Of a stretch of 64,000 bases of DNA, positions 52,149-59,024 are shown piece after piece (within the stretch, counting starts at the first letter, position 1; each line of letters starts with the position of its first letter). Source of the stretch: an uncultured Gemmatimonadales bacterium (GTDB lineage Bacteria > Gemmatimonadota > Gemmatimonadetes > Longimicrobiales > RSA9); NCBI GenBank assembly GCA_963741945.1, contig CAVUKA010000001.1, forward strand, positions 992,001 through 1,056,000. The letters are read 5' to 3'. The translations under genes were made by a program, and so were the position numbers. Under the pieces are notes generated by a model. That model worked only from the letters and a program-made list of their open reading frames with translations. It was not told the origin of the DNA and searched no databases.

Positions 52149-53612
52149 CTACCGCGGGAGCGGGTCGGGCATGTCGGCGATGACGTAGCTCATGACGGCC
52201 AGGGCCGCAACGCACTCCGCCAGGTCGGCCGGATCCAGCTTGTCGAGCGTGTCGGCGGCGCTGTGGTGATACCAGAAGTACTTCTCGCCCTCGACGTTCA
52301 GCCCCATCCCGGGCACGCCGAGTCGCATCATGGGCCCGATGTCTGCGCCGCCGCCACCGCGCCGGATCTCGCCCGCCTCGATGCGGTCCAGGAGGCTGCC
52401 CACGGTCCGGACCACCTGGAAGGCGGAATCCGAGCCGGTGAAACCGAACCCTTCGGGGTCGAATACACCCTCGTCGGACTCGATCATGAGGACGTGGTCG
52501 CCAGCCTGGTCGGCGTGGTCGCCGGCGTAGGCGCGGCCACCGCGGGTCCCGTTCTCCTCGTTCGTCCAGGCGACGACGCGCACGGTCCGGCGGGGGCGCA
52601 TGCCCAGCTCCTTCATCAGCTTCACGGCCTGCCAGGCCGCGACCACGCCGCCCGCATCGTCCATGGCGCCCTGGCCCACGTCCCAGGAGTCCAGGTGCCC
52701 GCTCACCACCACCACCTCGTCGGGCTTCTCGCTGCCCCGGATCTCGGCGATCACGTTTCGGGACGGGGCGTCGGGCAGGGTTTCCGCGTTCATCTCCAGG
52801 CGAAGCACGGGCGTGACGCCGCGCTCCTGCATCCGGTGCAGCATCTCGGCGTCCTCCACGGCGATGGCGGCGTGCGGGATCTTCGGCACACCGTCCTCGT
52901 AGTGCATTGCGCCCGTGTGCGGGCTGTCCATGGAGAACGACGCCACCGACCGGATCAGGCTCGCAACCGCTCCCGCCTTCGCCGCCTCCACCGCGCCATC
53001 GCTCCGGTAGCGGACGGTCTGGCCGTAGGTGACGAACGGGGCGTCGAAGAGGACGATCTTCCCGCGCGCGTCCGCCGCCCTCTCGTGCAGCTCGTCGAAG
53101 CTGGAGACCACGAGCACGGGCGCCGTGATCCCGCCCGCCGGCGTGGCGACGCTGCCGCCGAGGCCGAGCATGGGCAGCGCCCGATCCCGCGGCTCCACCA
53201 TGCGCAGCGACTCCTCGCCCCGCACCCAGTGCGGCACCATGGCTTCCTCGCCGTGCACGTTCTCGAGTCCGTCCTCCTTCATGCGCGCCATGACCCAGTC
53301 GATGGCGTCCTCGAGCGCCTGCGACCCGCTCAGGCGGGGCCCGAACGTGTCCACCAGCTCGCCCAGCCGCTCGTACGCTGCGCTGTCCCGGAGCGCGGCG
53401 TCGATGAACCGGTCCGCCGACGCGCGGTACGCGGCCACCAGGCCGCCGGTGTCGGGACTCGGTGCGCCGGCCGCAGTGCCGGCCGGTCGGGCAGCCGCGG
53501 CGTGACCGGGCGTCGCGGCACCGGCCTGCGCCGCCAGCGGTGCGGCGGCGGCCGATGTCGCCAGCACGAGGAATGTGGGCAGCGTCGCCCGCAGGATTCG
53601 GTTCTGCTTCAT
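52149..53612 (-). CDS. Secreted M28 metallo-carboxypeptidase (carboxypeptidase Q/PGCP-like, PA domain)
   Basis: FGPRLSGS, SPHTG, GHLDSWDVGQGAMDD, NEENG, ESDEG, YHHS.ADT; start overlaps the permease stop. Confidence 0.9.
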   Translation of the reverse strand: MKQNRILRATLPTFLVLATSAAAAPLAAQAGAATPGHAAAARPAGTAAGAPSPDTGGLVAAYRASADRFIDAALRDSAAYERLGELVDTFGPRLSGSQALEDAIDWVMARMKEDGLENVHGEEAMVPHWVRGEESLRMVEPRDRALPMLGLGGSVATPAGGITAPVLVVSSFDELHERAADARGKIVLFDAPFVTYGQTVRYRSDGAVEAAKAGAVASLIRSVASFSMDSPHTGAMHYEDGVPKIPHAAIAVEDAEMLHRMQERGVTPVLRLEMNAETLPDAPSRNVIAEIRGSEKPDEVVVVSGHLDSWDVGQGAMDDAGGVVAAWQAVKLMKELGMRPRRTVRVVAWTNEENGTRGGRAYAGDHADQAGDHVLMIESDEGVFDPEGFGFTGSDSAFQVVRTVGSLLDRIEAGEIRRGGGGADIGPMMRLGVPGMGLNVEGEKYFWYHHSAADTLDKLDPADLAECVAALAVMSYVIADMPDPLPR

Positions 53613-54490
53613 CAGATCTGGCTCACAGGGTTCTTGGAATGAATCACCGGCCCCGGCTCCTCGCGGAGGTGGCTCAGGGTGGCGGGCTTGCGGACACCGA
53701 GCAGCGGCCTGGCCACGAAAGCCACGACCAGCGCGACACCGAACGAAACCACGAGCAGCGGCCCGGTGGTGACGTCCCAGTACACCGAACCGAGGAGGCC
53801 GGCCACGAGGGCCACTGCCCCGCTCGCCCACGCGATCAGGAGTGCGCGGTTGAACCGTCCGGTGAACGTGAACGCGATCACCGACGGGATCACGAGCGTG
53901 CTGAAGATGAGCAGAACACCGGCGAGTGTCACGGAGAAGGTGATGGCGATGCCGAAGGTGAGATAGAAAATGAAGTCCCACAAGCGGATACGGGATACGC
54001 GCTCGGGATGAAACGTAACCGCGCGCATCTTCTCGCGCGTGATGAAGTGAAACAGCCCTATGGCGGCATACGCCGCGGCGACGACGCCGAAGGTGCCCCA
54101 CGTGGCCCAGATCAGCGAGCCCGTCAGCGTCTCCTTCACGTGCTCCGCCCCCTCGGCCGTGAAGCTGGTGAGCAGGATCACGGTCGCGGACGCCACCACA
54201 TAGACGATCCCGATGATGGCTTCCTGCGGGACGAGCGTTTCCTCATGGCTGCGGGTGAAGCTGAAGATCGCGGCGCCCACCAGCGTGAACGCGAACGTCA
54301 GCGCCCAGGAGAGCGGGGTCCCGATGTGGGCGCCGAAGAGGAGCGCGATCGTGCTGCCGACGGCGGCGACCTGGGCGAACGCGAGGTCCACGAATATGAC
54401 CCCGCGCCGGATGATGTGGAGGCCGAAATAGGCGTTCATGGCCACGACCACCAGTCCGACGGCCAGGGGGGCGAGAATGAGGGAGAACAT
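53612..54490 (-). CDS. Metal ABC transporter permease (ZnuB/ABC-3 family)
   Basis: G.HII.RGVIFVDLA.AQ.A, EAIIG..Y, GVLLIFS.LVIP. Confidence 0.88.
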   Translation of the reverse strand: MFSLILAPLAVGLVVVAMNAYFGLHIIRRGVIFVDLAFAQVAAVGSTIALLFGAHIGTPLSWALTFAFTLVGAAIFSFTRSHEETLVPQEAIIGIVYVVASATVILLTSFTAEGAEHVKETLTGSLIWATWGTFGVVAAAYAAIGLFHFITREKMRAVTFHPERVSRIRLWDFIFYLTFGIAITFSVTLAGVLLIFSTLVIPSVIAFTFTGRFNRALLIAWASGAVALVAGLLGSVYWDVTTGPLLVVSFGVALVVAFVARPLLGVRKPATLSHLREEPGPVIHSKNPVSQI

Positions 54491-54493
54491 GGC

Positions 54494-55663
54494 TCAGCTC
54501 CCCGCGAACGCGGCGGCGAGGGAGCCGACCCAGCGGTCCACCACGTCGAAATAGGTGGGTGTGCCGGGGCCGCCCGGCTGGAGCGGGACGATGACGGCAG
54601 TCCCGCCCGCGCGGGCGGCCACGGCCTTCACCTTCGCGGGATCGAAGTAGTTGGCTGCGAGCAGGACATTGATGCCCTGGTGCTTCATCAGGTCGATGAG
54701 GTCGCCCACGTGTCCCGGCGTGGGCGGGATTCCGGGCTTGGCTTCGACGTAGTCGACGCAGGTGACGCCGAAGCGGTTCTCGAAGTACGCCCAGTTCTTG
54801 TGGTAGCAGACGATCTTCCTGCCGCGAAACGGCTGGGCGGCCCCGAGCCAGCCCCCCAGCCGCGCCGTGAGTGGCTGGCCCTGATAGTCCTGGGCCGCGA
54901 GGAAATCCAGCAGCTTCCCCTGGTGGCTGAGCCGCTCCAGCGTGGCGCCCCCCAGCATGTCGACCAGCGCGTCGCCGTAGAGCCGGCGGTAGAGCCGATC
55001 GGTGTATGCAGCCAGCTTGGCGTCGAACATCGCCGCGTCGCCCGCATCCACGTTCTTGAGCCCGGCCGTGATGTTCCGCGCGATCTGCAGCACGTTCAGC
55101 GGATCGGTAAACAGGTGCGGGTTGCCATAAATGTGGATGTCGCCCTGGGAGCGGTCATGCGAGGTGGGGACGTCGAGCAGCTCGATGCCGGGGTAGGCAG
55201 TGATGTACCCCTGTCCTCCCTCCTTCACTTTCGCGTTCCCCGCCTTGTCCAGGAGGGCGGGTACCCAGAGCTCCAGGTCGAGGCCCGTGGTCACGAAGGC
55301 GTCCGCCTGCCGGATCCTCAGCGCGTAGCTGGGCTTCGGCCGGACGAAATGGGCGTCCTCCGCCGGATCGGCAATGGCCGTGACCTCCACGGCGTCGCCG
55401 GCGATGGTGCGAACCAGCTCGGCGTAGACGGGCAGGGTGGCGACCACGCGGAGGGGCCCAGGGAAGGGCCAGGCTCCAAAATCCGCATTCGGCCGATCGA
55501 GGCATGCTGGCGTCGCGCATGGAAGCGGAAATGGCGTCTCCGCCGGCGCCGGGGCATGGTCGGCCGGGCCGAATGTGGATTTTGGAGCCTGGCCCTGTGG
55601 TTGTGGTTGGGGCGGGGTGGCCAGGGTGACGGCCAGCGCCGCCACCAGATTCAGCATCGTCAT
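54494..55663 (-). CDS. Metal ABC transporter substrate-binding protein (ZnuA/TroA family)
   Basis: LRVVAT, EDAHFV.PKPS, GLDLELW, GDIH..GNPH...DP, YH..W.YF, KPGIPPTP.H. Confidence 0.9.
   Translation of the reverse strand: MTMLNLVAALAVTLATPPQPQPQGQAPKSTFGPADHAPAPAETPFPLPCATPACLDRPNADFGAWPFPGPLRVVATLPVYAELVRTIAGDAVEVTAIADPAEDAHFVRPKPSYALRIRQADAFVTTGLDLELWVPALLDKAGNAKVKEGGQGYITAYPGIELLDVPTSHDRSQGDIHIYGNPHLFTDPLNVLQIARNITAGLKNVDAGDAAMFDAKLAAYTDRLYRRLYGDALVDMLGGATLERLSHQGKLLDFLAAQDYQGQPLTARLGGWLGAAQPFRGRKIVCYHKNWAYFENRFGVTCVDYVEAKPGIPPTPGHVGDLIDLMKHQGINVLLAANYFDPAKVKAVAARAGGTAVIVPLQPGGPGTPTYFDVVDRWVGSLAAAFAGS
55465..55596. mobile_element. 132-bp MITE-like palindromic element inserted in-frame in the SBP gene
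   Basis: 30-bp inverted ends AGGGCCAGGCTCCAAAATCC(G/A)CATTCGGCC with one mismatch, 72-bp interior, length a multiple of 3; no target-site duplication seen. Confidence 0.6.
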
Positions 55664-55682: not shown

Positions 55683-57065
55683 TCAGTAGGTCTGGTGCTT
55701 GTGGGGTCCCATGGCGAACGTGGTCTGGAGCGTGAGCTGCCTCAGCGTGCCATCCGGCCTGTGCAGGAAGTCCATCTCGGCGCGCAGGCGGACGAACTCG
55801 CTCTGCCAGAACGTGAGCGTCGGGGCGGCGAGCCATGACGACCGTGGCGGATCGAGCGGGTCCTCGGTCCAGCCCCAGCGTCCACCCACCAGCCACCGCG
55901 GTCCCAGGCGCATCTCGGCGTTGGCGAACGCGCCCCAGGCGTTGCCGGGGTCGGGCCCATCCGTCGCTCCGGTGGCCAGCGAGCCGAGCACCGCCCCACC
56001 GCGCAGCGTGATCTCGCGGTAGTGGCCGCGTTCGGGCGGTCGCCAGCTGAGCGTGAAGTCCACACCGCCGACGCGGGTGGCGAAGTCGTCCTCTCCGGTC
56101 CAATCGGGCCCGGCCAGGCCGGTCAGTCCGAGCTCAAAGTAGGTGGAGCGGCTCAGGTCCCAGAACGCGTTCAGGTGCCCGAGGGCGGCGGGGCGGTTGG
56201 CGCCGCCGAAGGCCACCTCGTTCCCGCTGTTCGTCAATTCGGTCCACACCTCCCAGGTGCCCGCTCCGGTCGCGGGCACGAGCCAGTGCACCGACAGCCC
56301 CGTCTCCGCCAGTCCTTCTTCACCGAAGAAGGCGACGTAGGGGAGCGGGAAGCTCTGGCCGGGGAGTGCGTGCGGGTGCCAGCGATTGAGCTGGCCGAAG
56401 CGCTGCCGGAAGCGGCCGAACGTGACGTTCAGCCCACCGGGTAGCCCCGTCCAGAGGATGTATGCCTCTTCCGCGGAGACTTCGGGCCCTTCCTCCGGCG
56501 CGCTCGGATCCTCGAACGGCGCCAGGCCGCCGGCCGGGCGGCCGAAGCTCAGATTGACCTTGGCCAGCGCATACGGATCGAGATTGGACTGGAAGCCCAC
56601 CTCGATCTCACGGGCCACGAACGACTGGTGGCCGGGGTCATCCAAGTCCATGAAGCCGAACAGGTCGCCGGTGACCGTCAGCTCCGGGTTGAGCGCCTGC
56701 AGGTTGCGCTGACGGCCGACGAACGCCGGCTGCGCGGGCTCCTGGGCGGGCGATGCGCCGGTGGTGTCTTCCGCTCCCCCCGCCGCGGCAGCGGCCGCGG
56801 CCCGGAGCGCGGCGAGAGTGTCCCCGGGAGTCTCGCCGGCCTGACCTGGCGCGGCCTGTGAGCCGGCGGCCTGAAGCGCCTTCACCATGCGGGTGAGGCT
56901 GTCCAGGGTGGCGCGGACGCGCGCCACCTCGCGGCGCAGGGAGTCGACTGGCGGCCGGGGCGACGGCTGCTGTGCCGCGAGCGAAGCGGGCGCCGCAAGC
57001 GCCAGGATCGCGGCCGACACGAGCGCGTGGACGGCGCCCGGGCGCCGCCTCGATGTCCATTTCAA
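55683..57065 (-). CDS. Outer-membrane beta-barrel protein associated with metal uptake
   Basis: TTG start after GGAGGA; signal peptide, coiled coil, LNP.L...GD, EEAY, GRFR..FG.LNRWHPH, SEF.RLR, C-terminal GPHKHQTY. Confidence 0.75.
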   Translation of the reverse strand: MKWTSRRRPGAVHALVSAAILALAAPASLAAQQPSPRPPVDSLRREVARVRATLDSLTRMVKALQAAGSQAAPGQAGETPGDTLAALRAAAAAAAGGAEDTTGASPAQEPAQPAFVGRQRNLQALNPELTVTGDLFGFMDLDDPGHQSFVAREIEVGFQSNLDPYALAKVNLSFGRPAGGLAPFEDPSAPEEGPEVSAEEAYILWTGLPGGLNVTFGRFRQRFGQLNRWHPHALPGQSFPLPYVAFFGEEGLAETGLSVHWLVPATGAGTWEVWTELTNSGNEVAFGGANRPAALGHLNAFWDLSRSTYFELGLTGLAGPDWTGEDDFATRVGGVDFTLSWRPPERGHYREITLRGGAVLGSLATGATDGPDPGNAWGAFANAEMRLGPRWLVGGRWGWTEDPLDPPRSSWLAAPTLTFWQSEFVRLRAEMDFLHRPDGTLRQLTLQTTFAMGPHKHQTY

Positions 57066-57134
57066 GGGTTCCTCCGCCGATGTGGGTGATCATCCCCGCG
57101 CCACTGCTGTGGCACGGGCGCCGAAGACGGGGCT

Positions 57135-57464
57135 TCAGCCGGTGGGTGGGGCCCTGGAGCGATACGGTGGGTGGAGGAGCAGCTCGGCCGGCGAGCCCGC
57201 GTCCGCGACGGTCGCGGCCTCGTGGATCCGTTGCGCGAGCGGCGGCGGCGAGGATGTGGGCGGGGCCCAGGGTGTAGCGCCGAAGGAGAGGCAGAGGTGG
57301 TGATCGTGAGCCAGCCAGCCGGGCTGGGTCGGCTTCGCATCAATGGCGAGCCTGTGGAGTTCGGTCCCCACGTCCAGCAGCGGCACGGCCAGCATCGACG
57401 TGCCGAGAAGCACCGCCACGATGAGGCTGATGAGCCGGCGTGGACTTCTGGACCGGAGGGGCAT
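57135..57464 (-). CDS. Putative metal-responsive leader / ribosome-arrest peptide (DUF2946/CruR-like architecture)
   Basis: N-terminal hydrophobic helix, HDHHLC, Pro-rich linker, C-terminal RSRAPPTG-stop; first ORF of the metal-uptake operon. Confidence 0.72.
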   Translation of the reverse strand: MPLRSRSPRRLISLIVAVLLGTSMLAVPLLDVGTELHRLAIDAKPTQPGWLAHDHHLCLSFGATPWAPPTSSPPPLAQRIHEAATVADAGSPAELLLHPPYRSRAPPTG

Positions 57465-57471
57465 GGTACGG

Positions 57472-57501
57472 AGGTTCGTGGACGGACACCGGGTCTGTCA
57501 A
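57472..57501 (-). promoter_or_regulatory. Sigma70 promoter giving a probable leaderless mRNA
   Basis: TTGACA (57501-57496), 18-bp spacer, GAACCT (57477-57472), then 7 nt to the ATG; no SD sequence. Confidence 0.6.
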
Positions 57502-57635
57502 GGAAACGTCCGGGCCGGCCCACACCGGAAGCGGAGCGCGGCGCCCCGGGCGGCGGGGCGGGACTTGCGAGCGGAGCGTCGAGCGGCCAGCATCCGCCGG
57601 GTCGGAACCACGGACCCGGAGTGCAAAGGAACCGC

Positions 57636-59024
57636 GTGAAGACCATCATCGAGCCTTTCAAGATCAAGGCAGTGGAGCCGATCCGCATGACCACGCGCGA
57701 GGAGCGCATGGAGTGGCTGGCGGAAGCGGGATACAACGTATTCCTCCTGAAGTCGGACATGGTGCTCATCGACCTGCTGACGGACAGCGGCACGTCGGCA
57801 ATGAGCGCGGAGCAGTGGGCCGCCATCATGCGGGGCGACGAGGCGTACGCGGGCTCCCGGTCCTTCTACAGGCTGGAGAAGCGGGTGAAGGAGCTGTTCG
57901 GGTTCAAGCACCTGATCCCGACGCACCAGGGGCGCGCGGCCGAGCGCATCCTGTTCAGCACCATGTGCCAGGCCGGGGACGTGGTCCCGAACAACACGCA
58001 TTTCGACACCACGCGGGCGAACATCGAAGCGCGAGGCGCGCAGGCGGTGGACCTGCCGACGCCCAGGGCGAAGAACCGGCAGGAGCCGGCGCCGTTCAAG
58101 GGGGACATGGACGTGGACGGGCTGCGTCGCCTGATCGGAGAGGTGGGCGCGGACAGGATCCCGCTCTGCATGGTGACGGTGACGAACAATTCCGGGGGCG
58201 GGCAGCCGGTGTCGCTGGCGAACATGCGTGAGATCAGCGACGTGTGCCGCGAGCACGGCATCCCCTTCTACATCGACGCCTGCCGGTTCGCGGAGAACGC
58301 GTACCTGATCAAGAGGAACGAGGAAGGTCAGGCCGGGCGGACCGTGGAGGAGATCGCGCGGGAGATGTTCTCCTACGCCGATGGCTGCACGTTCAGCGCG
58401 AAGAAGGATGGCCTGGCCAACATCGGCGGGTTCGTGGCCACGAACGACGACCGTCTGGCCGAGCAGGAGAAGGACCTGCTGATCCTGACGGAAGGCTTCC
58501 CCACGTACGGCGGGCTGGCCGGGCGCGACCTGGAAGCGATCGCGGTGGGTCTCGAGGAAGTCGTGCAGGAGGACTACCTCGAGTACCGGCTCGCTTCCGT
58601 GCGATACCTGGGCGAGCACATCGCCCGGGAGGGCGTCCCCATCATCCAGCCTCCGGGCGGGCACGCCGTCTACCTGGATGCGGCCGCGTTCCTGCCGCAC
58701 GTGGCACCGCTCCAGCTGCCGGGGCAGGCGCTGGTGTCGGAGTTGTACGTGGCGGGCGGGATCCGTGGCGTGGAGATCGGGACGGTCATGTTCGGGCGGC
58801 GGGACCCGGAGACGGGCAAGGAGGAGCCCGGACCCATGGAGCTGGTGCGGCTCACGATCCCGCGGCGCGTCTACACGCAGAGTCACATCGACTACGTGAT
58901 CGAGGTCATCCTCGAAGTGTTCCGGCGCCGCGAGTCCATCGGCGGGTTCAGGATCACGCGCCAGGCGCCGGTCCTGCGGCATTTCACCGCCCGCTTCGAG
59001 CCGCTGTACGCGTTCGGGAGCTGA
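57636..59024 (+). CDS. tnaA: Tryptophanase (beta-eliminating lyase)
   Basis: EPFKIK.VE, IDLLTDSGT, HQGR.AE, SAKKD (PLP Lys), EGFPTYGGL; LRHFT favours tryptophanase over tyrosine phenol-lyase (LRFFT). Confidence 0.88.
   Translation: MKTIIEPFKIKAVEPIRMTTREERMEWLAEAGYNVFLLKSDMVLIDLLTDSGTSAMSAEQWAAIMRGDEAYAGSRSFYRLEKRVKELFGFKHLIPTHQGRAAERILFSTMCQAGDVVPNNTHFDTTRANIEARGAQAVDLPTPRAKNRQEPAPFKGDMDVDGLRRLIGEVGADRIPLCMVTVTNNSGGGQPVSLANMREISDVCREHGIPFYIDACRFAENAYLIKRNEEGQAGRTVEEIAREMFSYADGCTFSAKKDGLANIGGFVATNDDRLAEQEKDLLILTEGFPTYGGLAGRDLEAIAVGLEEVVQEDYLEYRLASVRYLGEHIAREGVPIIQPPGGHAVYLDAAAFLPHVAPLQLPGQALVSELYVAGGIRGVEIGTVMFGRRDPETGKEEPGPMELVRLTIPRRVYTQSHIDYVIEVILEVFRRRESIGGFRITRQAPVLRHFTARFEPLYAFGS

Follow-up and report, generated by a model that had tools for sequence, protein, structure and literature searches.

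What does a small open reading frame (ORF) do when it heads what looks like a metal-uptake operon and ends two codons after a putative ribosome-arrest motif? We addressed this question in a 64,000-nt window of the genome of an uncultured Gemmatimonadales bacterium (CAVUKA010000001.1, positions 992,001-1,056,000), where the leader ORF and the operon behind it lie on the minus strand; all coordinates are those of the window. An initial annotation of the locus had interpreted the leader as a metal-sensing arrest device ending in the motif RAPP, and our comparative analysis, which works from sequences and models, supports this interpretation. We propose, by analogy with characterised systems and with a probability of roughly 0.62, that the leader belongs to the CruR/CutF (DUF2946-like) class of nascent-chain metal sensors and would control an operon encoding a porin, a ZnuA-family protein, an ABC-3 permease and an M28 peptidase. 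What was computed here comprises the gene, its motifs and three fixed distances, its kinship with leaders that carry C-x-x-C and RAPP (CxxC-RAPP leaders), the operon content, the leaderless promoter, a zone in which C exceeds G, a structured spacer and the presence of rho. Comparisons with published systems refer to the main texts of the papers cited.

The leader and its parts are the following.

57135..57464, minus strand: leader gene, 109 codons plus TGA, with no Shine-Dalgarno (SD) sequence; called from coding-like G+C, an orthologue with 68% identity and family alignments.
57375..57434, minus strand: hydrophobic helix LISLIVAVLLGTSMLAVPLL, residues 11-30, after a basic N-terminus (R4, R6, R9, R10).
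57372..57383, minus strand: P-L-L-D closing the helix; L30 and D31 invariant in 17/17 leaders.
57291..57308, minus strand: sensor motif H53-D-H55-H-L-C58 (HDHHLC, residues 53-58); H53, H55 and C58 invariant in 17/17.
57144..57155, minus strand: putative arrest motif R104-A-P-P107 (AGG GCC CCA CCC); R104, P106 and P107 invariant, A105 in 16/17.
57135..57137, minus strand: stop codon TGA, two codons (T, G) past RAPP; TGA in 17/17 relatives and in 56/61 further loci.

Is this ORF a gene at all? Spurious long ORFs are common in a genome of 70% G+C, and a C-terminal R[AG]PP is not rare in it (158 of the 40,568 stop-to-stop frames with 50 codons or more). A word-indexed protein search, moreover, returned one relative only. 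An open frame without a gene, in G+C-rich intergenic DNA, could look like this. However, only the leader frame, among those frames, joins a terminal R[AG]PP to a hydrophobic helix and to a Cys 45 residues upstream. Its G+C by codon position (0.71/0.58/0.85) is coding-like when set against that of 1,406 long ORFs (0.69/0.53/0.89), and its frame, length, motifs, spacings and position recur across dozens of genera. A profile search, finally, revealed that the single hit of the word-indexed search reflected a limit of sensitivity, not rarity. Given this codon-position composition, the conservation of motifs and spacings and the relatives found with profiles, we rejected the chance ORF, to which we leave practically no weight: the leader is a genuine conserved gene, and conservation is what decides it.

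A locus search started from the single leader protein confirmed 0 of 599 candidate stretches. We therefore collected relatives by searching the 73 genomes of the taxonomic family in six frames and then running phmmer on the loci obtained. This yielded 16 full-length leaders, of which 15 are just 24-30% identical to the window protein; the same-genus orthologue (P0006, locus L033) reaches 68%. None of our conclusions depends on genomes G054, G056 and G057, which are flagged as unpublished. No substitution occurs in the 17 sequences at L30, D31, H53, H55, C58, R104, P106 and P107, and P28 and A105 are almost as constant. A profile built from them and run over 1.84 billion cluster representatives matched 362 at E ≤ 1e-3 and 138 at E ≤ 1e-10; the counts for representatives given below refer to the best 150 of these 362. 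H[DNHY]HxxC is found in 149/150, and R[AG]PP in 144/150 (RAPP 138, RGPP 6), the other six having RSPP (2), RDPP (2) or truncated or altered-looking ends (2). PMC12992588 describes RAPP and RGPP as arresting translation in various sequence contexts, and RSPP and RDPP as partly permissive. The initial annotation had described the sensor as HDHHLC followed by a Pro-rich spacer. The H-x-H-x-x-C part of this description holds across the family; the fourth His and the Pro-rich stretch that the window protein has between HDHHLC and RAPP are not kept in its relatives.

The distances between the motifs are more constant than the sequence between them. Between the Cys and the Arg there are 45 residues in 17/17 close relatives, in 58/61 loci found through the porin gene (see below) and in 127 of 143 representatives (44 in 10, 46 in 6). 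Two residues follow RAPP in 17/17 relatives and in 119/144 representatives, and from 1 to 8 in the remaining 25. The end of the helix reads P-x-x-[DE] in 146/149 representatives, and the acidic residue precedes the sensor by 21-23 residues in 135/146, exactly 22 in 101. Even the overall length is nearly constant, with 108-111 codons from the conserved ATG to the stop in 45/51 cases. In the linkers, the number of residues is fixed and their identity free, and this suggests that the chain is measured while it is still on the ribosome; such conservation of length without sequence would be unexpected of a folded protein. The helix-end acidic residue, D31, is a candidate fourth ligand or topology mark. 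Residues 11-30 form a predicted export signal or signal anchor (the Kyte-Doolittle maximum over 19 residues is 2.4, at residue 11). The AlphaFold model, computed from 150 sequences, has just a helix at 8-31 (block pLDDT, the predicted local distance difference test, 93-97) and a short helix at 55-63 over the sensor; with a predicted TM score (pTM) of 0.37, it contains no globular domain.

These features could also belong to a working protein, such as a small membrane-anchored or periplasmic metal-binding chaperone or accessory that passes metal to the porin or to the binding protein, in which RAPP would slow the end of synthesis or have no regulatory role. In favour of it, the leader product has an export helix as well as conserved His/Cys and acidic residues; further His/Cys occur in most relatives (an extra His in 123/149 representatives). 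Moreover, it is always co-encoded with an uptake system, and CzcI-type CutF-like proteins that lack the Pro motif have been discussed as regulators or metal binders (PMC9973294). Such a protein is less easily reconciled with linkers in which lengths rather than residues are conserved, or with a model that has no globular fold. In a mature protein it is hard to see what purpose a fixed distance of 45 residues to a C-terminal RAPP would serve, and RAPP and RGPP are strongly avoided in proteomes except in arrest peptides (PMC12992588). The genome studied here conforms to this pattern, with 25 RAPP and 5 RGPP against 64 AAPP and 29 AGPP in 781,875 residues. We regard this explanation as improbable.

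The arrest reading gains from homology to a known family. In CruR (Bp2923) of Bordetella pertussis, the prototype of DUF2946, an export signal is followed by CXXC, 45 residues and an RAPP located three residues from the end (PMC9426467). It is encoded by the first gene of a copper-uptake operon; copper relieves its arrest, upon which Rho terminates transcription in a 162-nt spacer (PMC9426467). A C>G zone within the leader contains the rut site, and adding five residues to the spacing impaired copper control (PMC9426467). The initial annotation had placed the window leader among the variants of such proteins, and we searched it with the corresponding hidden Markov model (HMM) of Pfam. The match to DUF2946 (PF11162) has 14.2 bits (E 0.075), under the gathering threshold of 23.7 bits; it covers the model's C-terminal two thirds up to its last position, which falls on RAPP. 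At E ≤ 1, 4 of the 17 leaders match the model, the best at 6.2e-5. PF11162 has just four matches above cut-off in 151 sampled genomes of the phylum. Two of these loci (L130, L131) have RAPP-ending ORFs with C-x-x-C and L132 reads C-x-x-C-D; at the fourth, L133, we found no RAPP-ending C-x-x-C ORF.

Using PF11162, we located 12 CxxC-RAPP leaders of Gemmatimonadota for comparison, of which L130, L131 and L132 alone exceed the Pfam cut-off. Aligned profile to profile with hhalign, the window family (A5) and these leaders (A6) match with 96.7% probability (E 4.4e-10) over 107 columns. The window family may therefore be assigned to a diverged branch of the CruR/CxxC-RAPP leader superfamily. In this alignment of features, H55-x-x-C58, plus a His two residues upstream, occupies the place of C-x-x-C, 45 residues before RAPP as in CruR; the window leader lacks the conserved C-x-x-C of DUF2946 and has no second Cys. 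The last Cys of the L130 and L137 leaders, counted by hand, is likewise 45 residues from the Arg. The features shared with DUF2946 leaders are thus the C-terminal RAPP, the 45-residue spacing, the N-terminal hydrophobic segment, the position as first gene of a metal operon, the long spacer and the homology itself. The proposal of His ligands in place of CxxC is borne out by these comparisons, as is the suspected relation to DUF2946.

Several side observations concern the CxxC leaders. Those of other Gemmatimonadota (L130, L131, L134, L137-L140, L145, L147, L148) usually read H-D-x3-4-C-x-x-C plus RAPP, mostly with a 3-residue tail. The leader at L137 reads H-D-H-M-A-C-Q-F-C, intermediate between the His/Cys and the CxxC sensor types. 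In the window's own genome, the PF11162 search found no C-x-x-C leader.

What does the leader precede? Behind it, on the same strand, come the genes listed here, and then one for a transporter of the major facilitator superfamily.

55683..57065, minus strand: porin-like outer-membrane protein, 460 amino acids (aa); signal peptide, coiled coil and, in the model, a 16-strand barrel.
54494..55663, minus strand: ZnuA-family substrate-binding protein, 389 aa (Pfam ZnuA PF01297, E 3.5e-47).
53612..54490, minus strand: ABC-3 (ZnuB-type) permease, 292 aa (Pfam ABC-3, E 1.8e-20).
52149..53612, minus strand: secreted M28 peptidase, 487 aa, with a signal peptide (Pfam Peptidase_M28, E 1.2e-29).

In the 16 close relatives, the porin gene is next to the leader in 16/16, with ZnuA in 15/16 and the permease in 14/16, the shortfalls lying at contig ends. 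The porin-like protein has no match among Pfam or NCBIfam families. Its AlphaFold model (16 strands, mean pLDDT 68.2) has general porins as best Foldseek hits—chitoporin, Omp32, OmpU, OmpK36, DcaP and OprP, with E from 1e-10 to 1e-8—and target-normalised TM scores (TMt) of 0.57-0.63 against chitoporin, OmpM1, Omp32 and OmpU, compared with 0.38 against MOMP (ranks 3, 5). The product is thus predicted to adopt the 16-strand general-porin fold. The family has invariant His residues (N-R-W-H230-P-H232, H260 and the C-terminal G-P-H455-K-H457-x-x-Y), and the protein may be a metal-selective channel. Its N-terminal coiled coil resembles that of DcaP.

The best solved relative of the ZnuA-like protein is Synechocystis ZnuA (1pq4), in which the His of the stretches DPH, DPHIW and FHPSWAYF align with His of the query; we take these three to be the zinc ligands of 1pq4. 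Zinc is most likely the cargo, judging from the neighbouring genes and because the binding protein is closest to Synechocystis ZnuA and keeps the three His. The protein does not reach the NCBIfam equivalog cut-offs for AztC, ZnuA or MntC. It carries a Pro/Gln-rich N-terminal extension of 70 residues (1-70) with two Cys, and a long insert between the lobes (~224-277) at the site of the His-rich loop of classical ZnuA; the insert has one His, where the alignment with 1pq4 breaks. The row of genes behind the leader includes no ABC ATPase gene. On another contig there is a second, more canonical ZnuA (G000:C5:275083-275847), whose locus may lend its ATPase to this importer.

The M28 peptidase is probably the fifth gene of the operon, because its ATG and the stop of the permease gene share one base. 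A full-length M28 match follows the permease in 3/16 relatives (L033, L034, L040), covering residues 206-650 at ~71% identity or 19-650 at 79%; short N-terminal M28 hits in other loci overlap the permease match and were hence left uncounted. On the other side, the leader's upstream neighbour is a divergent gene for a beta-eliminating lyase on the plus strand (GTG at 57636).

With the downstream genes in view, an arrest peptide that monitors Sec/YidC export capacity in the manner of SecM, ApdA and ApdP, with no metal sensing, also deserves consideration. An N-terminal export helix with a C-terminal RAPP is indeed the architecture of the Sec-monitoring class (PMC12992588). But what the leader precedes is a porin and a metal importer rather than sec or yidC genes. 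The family and the CxxC leaders are homologous, and force sensing alone would leave an invariant H-x-H-x-x-C at a fixed distance unexplained. We consider this very improbable.

The association with the porin also holds when the leader plays no part in choosing the loci. We aligned the porin only, using one genome per species, found 347 stretches that encode relatives and analysed the best 80. All but one are titled Gemmatimonadota (Longimicrobiales, Gemmatimonadales and related groups); the other, L107, is titled only 'uncultured bacterium'. A strict pattern found the leader—H-x-H-x-x-C and a terminal R-x-P-P—upstream of the porin in 61/80 loci (RAPP 59, RGPP 1, RSPP 1), as expected from the initial annotation, which had also anticipated a transporter type and a lineage different from those of the copper leaders (here a porin with a ZnuA/ABC-3 importer, in Gemmatimonadota). 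Five more of the 80 have a variant or degenerate leader (L070, L079, L098) or apparent frame breaks (L056, L104), and two lie on contigs that are too short upstream. Among the variants, L079 and L098 have HDHxxxC with RSPP, and L070 has HDHRLY, with the Cys lost and RAPP intact.

In the remaining 12 of the 80 loci the family HMM finds no leader upstream of the porin. Nine of these porins come with a ZnuA-like protein and a permease; L086 and L093 have the ZnuA-like protein and no permease match, and in L096 the porin stands alone. Five of these 12 loci (L082, L099, L105, L112, L114) share the palindrome ATGATGGATCAT, with one variant, immediately ahead of a TATACT box and some 60-110 nt upstream of the porin match; the five look closely related and count as one observation. 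The palindrome may be a Zur/Fur-type operator that replaces the leader. In an even sample of the phylum the leader is patchy: matches at E ≤ 1e-5 occur in at least 21 of 151 genomes and include CxxC relatives.

How is the leader transcribed? The window has two promoter elements.

57496..57501, minus strand: -35 box TTGACA, read directly and compared with related loci.
57472..57477, minus strand: putative -10 element GAACCT, weak, 18 nt from the -35 box and 7 nt before the ATG; called from its position and from relatives.

The promoter call in the window rests on the comparison with relatives. Of 70 distinct loci, 51 have TTGAC at a distance of 34-39 nt ahead of an in-frame start (ATG in 50/51), a placement found at 98 of 21,126 start-like control triplets (0.46%). 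The same 51/70 loci have the layout TTGAC-N17/18-TAnnnT-N6-9-ATG with no SD, the -10-like hexamers of relatives (TAGCGT, TAGCCT, TATAGT, TACAAT) sitting 6-9 nt before the ATG. As the distance from promoter to ATG is conserved and no SD is present, the mRNA is probably leaderless and starts at or near the ATG, in agreement with what the initial annotation had suggested. It had also seen no Fur- or Zur-like palindrome. Likewise, our inverted-repeat scan gave only G+C-rich palindromes at 57536-57559 and TGATCA at 57084-57095, with nothing resembling a Fur or Zur box, and the promoter spacers of 17 loci, inspected by eye, have no conserved operator-like block.

How could translation of the leader affect the genes behind it? 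Three features lie between the leader and the porin gene.

57066..57134, minus strand: spacer between leader and porin, 69 nt (family median 93 nt).
57095..57118, minus strand: hairpin CCCGTGCCAC-AGCA-GTGGCGCGGG, with a 10-bp stem (one G-U) and the loop AGCA; it forms in the computed fold and has no U tract.
57070..57075, minus strand: porin SD sequence GGAGGA, 4 nt before the TTG start at 57065; SD and start were assigned in 66/70 loci.

The porin starts in these 66 loci are ATG (31), GTG (22) and TTG (13). All the elements that the initial annotation had named (the ORF, helix, HDHHLC, RAPP, TTGACA, the 69-nt gap with its hairpin, GGAGGA and TTG, and CTCCTCC at 57179-57173) were found where it had placed them. 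Around the leader stop, C exceeds G from about -195 to +20, with a peak C of 0.47 and G of 0.24 at the predicted RAPP stall site. Over the last 150 nt, C minus G is +0.20 in the window and +0.127 on average in 70 loci, compared with -0.03 (standard deviation 0.09) in the 1,406 long ORFs. The genome has a rho gene, as Rho_RNA_bind is above cut-off at two places. The C-rich 3' end had been put forward as a possible Rho site, and this idea stands, with the C>G zone being a family trait and rho present. A strict scan of 56900-57750 gave 0 intrinsic terminators, and an Rfam scan of 56800-57800 at E ≤ 1 gave no family, including no riboswitch. Family spacers fold better than dinucleotide shuffles (mean z -1.55 in 61 loci; 70% below -1 and 36% below -2), and a stable hairpin (median -20 kcal/mol) is present in the spacers of these loci. 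At 57084-57095 on the minus strand, after the hairpin and before the SD, the window has GGGGATGATCAC(C/G)CACATCGG, which includes the palindrome TGATCA; it is kept in the same-genus orthologue at L033 and not in remoter relatives.

The spacer is where our reading meets its main alternative, a translational output of the CutF type. In CutF of Rhodobacter capsulatus, which has CxxxC and PPP, periplasmic copper prolongs the stall, and this melts a stem-loop masking the next gene's ribosome-binding site (PMC9973294, bioRxiv 10.1101/2025.02.05.636593). Transposed to the window family, the codons of the RAPP tail or the start of the spacer would sequester the porin SD, a parked or terminating ribosome would open it, metal would set the dwell time, and Rho would have no part. 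When the free RNA is folded in silico, the SD is indeed mostly paired: its mean unpaired probability in 61 loci is 0.16, it is below 0.3 in 48/61, and 63% of the pairing mass lies within the 27-nt footprint expected of a ribosome stalled at RAP|P. In addition, the first Pro of RAPP is CCT in 24/70 loci, giving CCUCC, the exact complement of GGAGG, and a stop fixed two codons past RAPP fixes the front edge of the ribosome relative to the spacer.

Yet masking the stall footprint raises the accessibility of the SD only from 0.16 to 0.24, with all 48 occluded cases staying at or below 0.6. In RNA this rich in C, the SD always gets another partner in silico, and CCA, unable to pair with the central A of GGAGG, occurs as often as CCT (23 vs 24). 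In the window, the 10-bp hairpin begins 31 nt past the P-site codon, beyond the reach of the stalled ribosome, and the fold of the 98-nt spacer is not significant by itself (z -1.59, with 14/200 shuffles folding as well), only the family-wide test being so. The initial annotation had proposed that CTCCTCC (57179-57173) pairs with the SD. This pairing is not prominent; across the family the SD pairs mostly with the RAPP-tail codons, and masking them barely frees it. We judge the translational output unlikely, and the small metal-binding protein and the Sec-monitoring peptide less likely still.

Codon choice in the arrest motif departs from that in the rest of the leader. The first RAPP Pro is CCT or CCA in 47/70 loci (CCT 24, CCA 23), compared with 14% of 631 other leader Pro codons. 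Ala is GCT or GCA in 36/67 loci (17% elsewhere in the same leaders), Arg is AGA in 11/70 (1% elsewhere), and CCG is depleted at the second Pro. Candidate reasons for A/U-ending codons at R, A and P1 include tRNA choice, slow decoding, a G-poor RNA for Rho and a CCUCC anti-SD.

Returning to the nascent-chain sensor with Rho output, the steps would be as follows; analogy with characterised leaders is the basis for the arrest, for the binding and identity of a metal, for the direction of the response and for the Rho output. The mRNA would start at or next to the ATG and be translated as it emerges, and the N-terminal helix would bring the ribosome to the Sec translocon. Peptide-bond formation would halt at R-A-P|P, presumably when Pro106 occupies the P site and Pro107 the A site, by analogy with the toeprint of CruR, whose in vitro arrest has the two Pro codons in these same sites (PMC12992588). 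At this stall, H53-x-H55-x-x-C58 would be 48-53 residues from the peptidyl-transferase centre, just out of the tunnel or translocon, and D31 22 residues further. In the absence of metal, the arrest would last; stalled and queued ribosomes would cover the C-rich, G-poor 3' part of the leader, Rho could not load, and RNA polymerase, held at the structured spacer, would proceed into the porin gene, leaving the operon ON. Metal on His/His/Cys, perhaps with Asp31, would pull or fold the chain and release the arrest. Termination would then follow two codons on, baring the C-rich RNA, and Rho would terminate transcription, turning the operon OFF. The sensed metal, judged from the transporter, would be Zn(II). 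A metal that switches uptake off would match the sign of CruR and would be physiologically sensible for an importer.

Several points weigh against this account. The leader is not obligatory, as 12 of the 78 porin operons with enough upstream sequence lack it. The match to DUF2946 misses the gathering score (14.2 vs 23.7 bits), the defining CxxC is absent, and the window protein also lacks an extra upstream Cys that most relatives have (97/149). Its -10 element is poor, and a strict sigma-70 scan of 56900-57750 returned 0 promoters. The C-richness of the leader is partly forced by Pro, Ala, Ser and Arg codons, and the spacer hairpins have no U tract and vary in position from +1 to +75. Three Fur-family genes in the genome mean that transcriptional zinc control may coexist. 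The metal is deduced solely from the neighbouring binding protein, and His/His/Cys could equally bind Cu, Ni or Co. Finally, the two prototypes behave in opposite ways—Cu releases CruR and prolongs CutF—and disagree on the sensing compartment, so that the sign and the site proposed here are guesses.

A more specific version can be offered tentatively and with rather more doubt than confidence: the leader would be the first zinc-responsive arrest peptide. Its ruler (helix-end acid, 22 aa, HxHxxC, 45 aa, RAPP, 2 aa, stop) would position a His2-Cys(-Asp) site at the translocon's outer mouth when the ribosome gets to RAP|P. Periplasmic Zn(II) would clamp the loop between anchor and chain, release the arrest and shut the zinc porin and the ABC importer, independently of Zur. 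The A/U-ending codons for R, A and P1 would be part of the device, through tRNA choice or through a G-poor RNA for Rho.

The interest of the family lies in its independence from the known cases. The nascent-chain metal sensors CruR and CutF are recent finds, studied for copper in Proteobacteria only. The leaders described here would be a natural variant in another phylum, with His/His/Cys ligands, probably zinc as the metal, and a porin plus a ZnuA-type importer as the target. They keep the 45-residue ruler of CruR and add two further fixed distances and a leaderless mRNA. They make it possible to test what the ruler measures, what role the translocon has in sensing, and whether the output works through Rho or through SD occlusion. 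If the proposal is true, zinc homeostasis, otherwise explained by Zur, gains a post-transcriptional layer. It also provides a function for a small gene, invisible to Pfam, that is present in hundreds of protein clusters of Gemmatimonadota. A 2025 survey of representative genomes placed RAPP-type upstream ORFs ahead of metal genes in many phyla (PMC12992588); its main text does not contain 'zinc', 'ABC transporter', 'porin' or 'Gemmatimonad', and its appendix lists may include this subfamily. In the full-text literature, covering the main texts of PMC9426467, PMC9973294 and PMC12992588, we found no paper that links arrest peptides with ZnuA, zinc uptake or Gemmatimonadota; the supplements of these three may already include the subfamily.

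CruR is among the closest known systems. As described in the main text of PMC9426467, it too is encoded by the first gene of a metal-uptake operon, has an export signal and a ligand motif 45 residues before an RAPP near the C-terminus, is followed by a long spacer, has a C>G zone and precedes a gene for an outer-membrane importer. The window leader differs in having H-x-H-x-x-C instead of C-x-x-C, a tail of 2 instead of 3 residues and 109 instead of 145 aa. Its spacer is shorter (69 nt, family median 93, compared with 162 nt) and its mRNA probably leaderless. The target here is a porin with a ZnuA/ABC-3 importer, whereas that of CruR is a TonB-dependent transporter with a PepSY_TM protein. The phylum, Gemmatimonadota, is unlisted in the main text of PMC9426467, and the Pfam score is below the cut-off.

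CutF, in the texts cited above, shares the layout of a Sec-exported sensor, a ligand motif ~45 residues before a C-terminal Pro motif and a structured spacer. However, it has CxxxC and PPP, dependent on elongation factor P, where the window leader has H-x-H-x-x-C and RAPP. It switches ON a detoxifying oxidase when Cu prolongs the stall; for an uptake system the opposite sign would be expected. The network of CutF-like proteins comprises 29 clusters with Cys, His or mixed motifs, and metals beyond copper have been suggested for it (PMC9973294, bioRxiv 10.1101/2025.02.05.636593). The neighbours named in the main text of PMC9973294 are OEP/RND, TonB-like, PCuAC and HupE/UreJ; that text has no 'ZnuA', 'porin' or 'Gemmatimonad', and the cluster logos of its supplement may include H-x-H-x-x-C.

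With ApdA, ApdP, ApcA, SecM and the set from Streptomyces lividans (for instance SLIV_16130, located ahead of a metal gene), the window leader shares a C-terminal R-A/G-P-P and the position of a small exported protein upstream of a regulated gene (PMC12992588, PMC10951233). The rare RSPP and RDPP of its family match the substitutions that PMC12992588 describes as partly permissive. Unlike it, the characterised members of this set, as far as these texts describe them, monitor export or lack a defined ligand motif at a constant spacing.

Zur-repressed znuABC operons, lastly, resemble the operon in their ZnuA-type binding protein with three conserved His and their ZnuB-type permease. The operon studied here differs from them in that it has no ATPase gene, adds a porin and an M28 peptidase, and has no conserved operator-like palindrome in its promoter; its control appears instead to sit in the translated leader.

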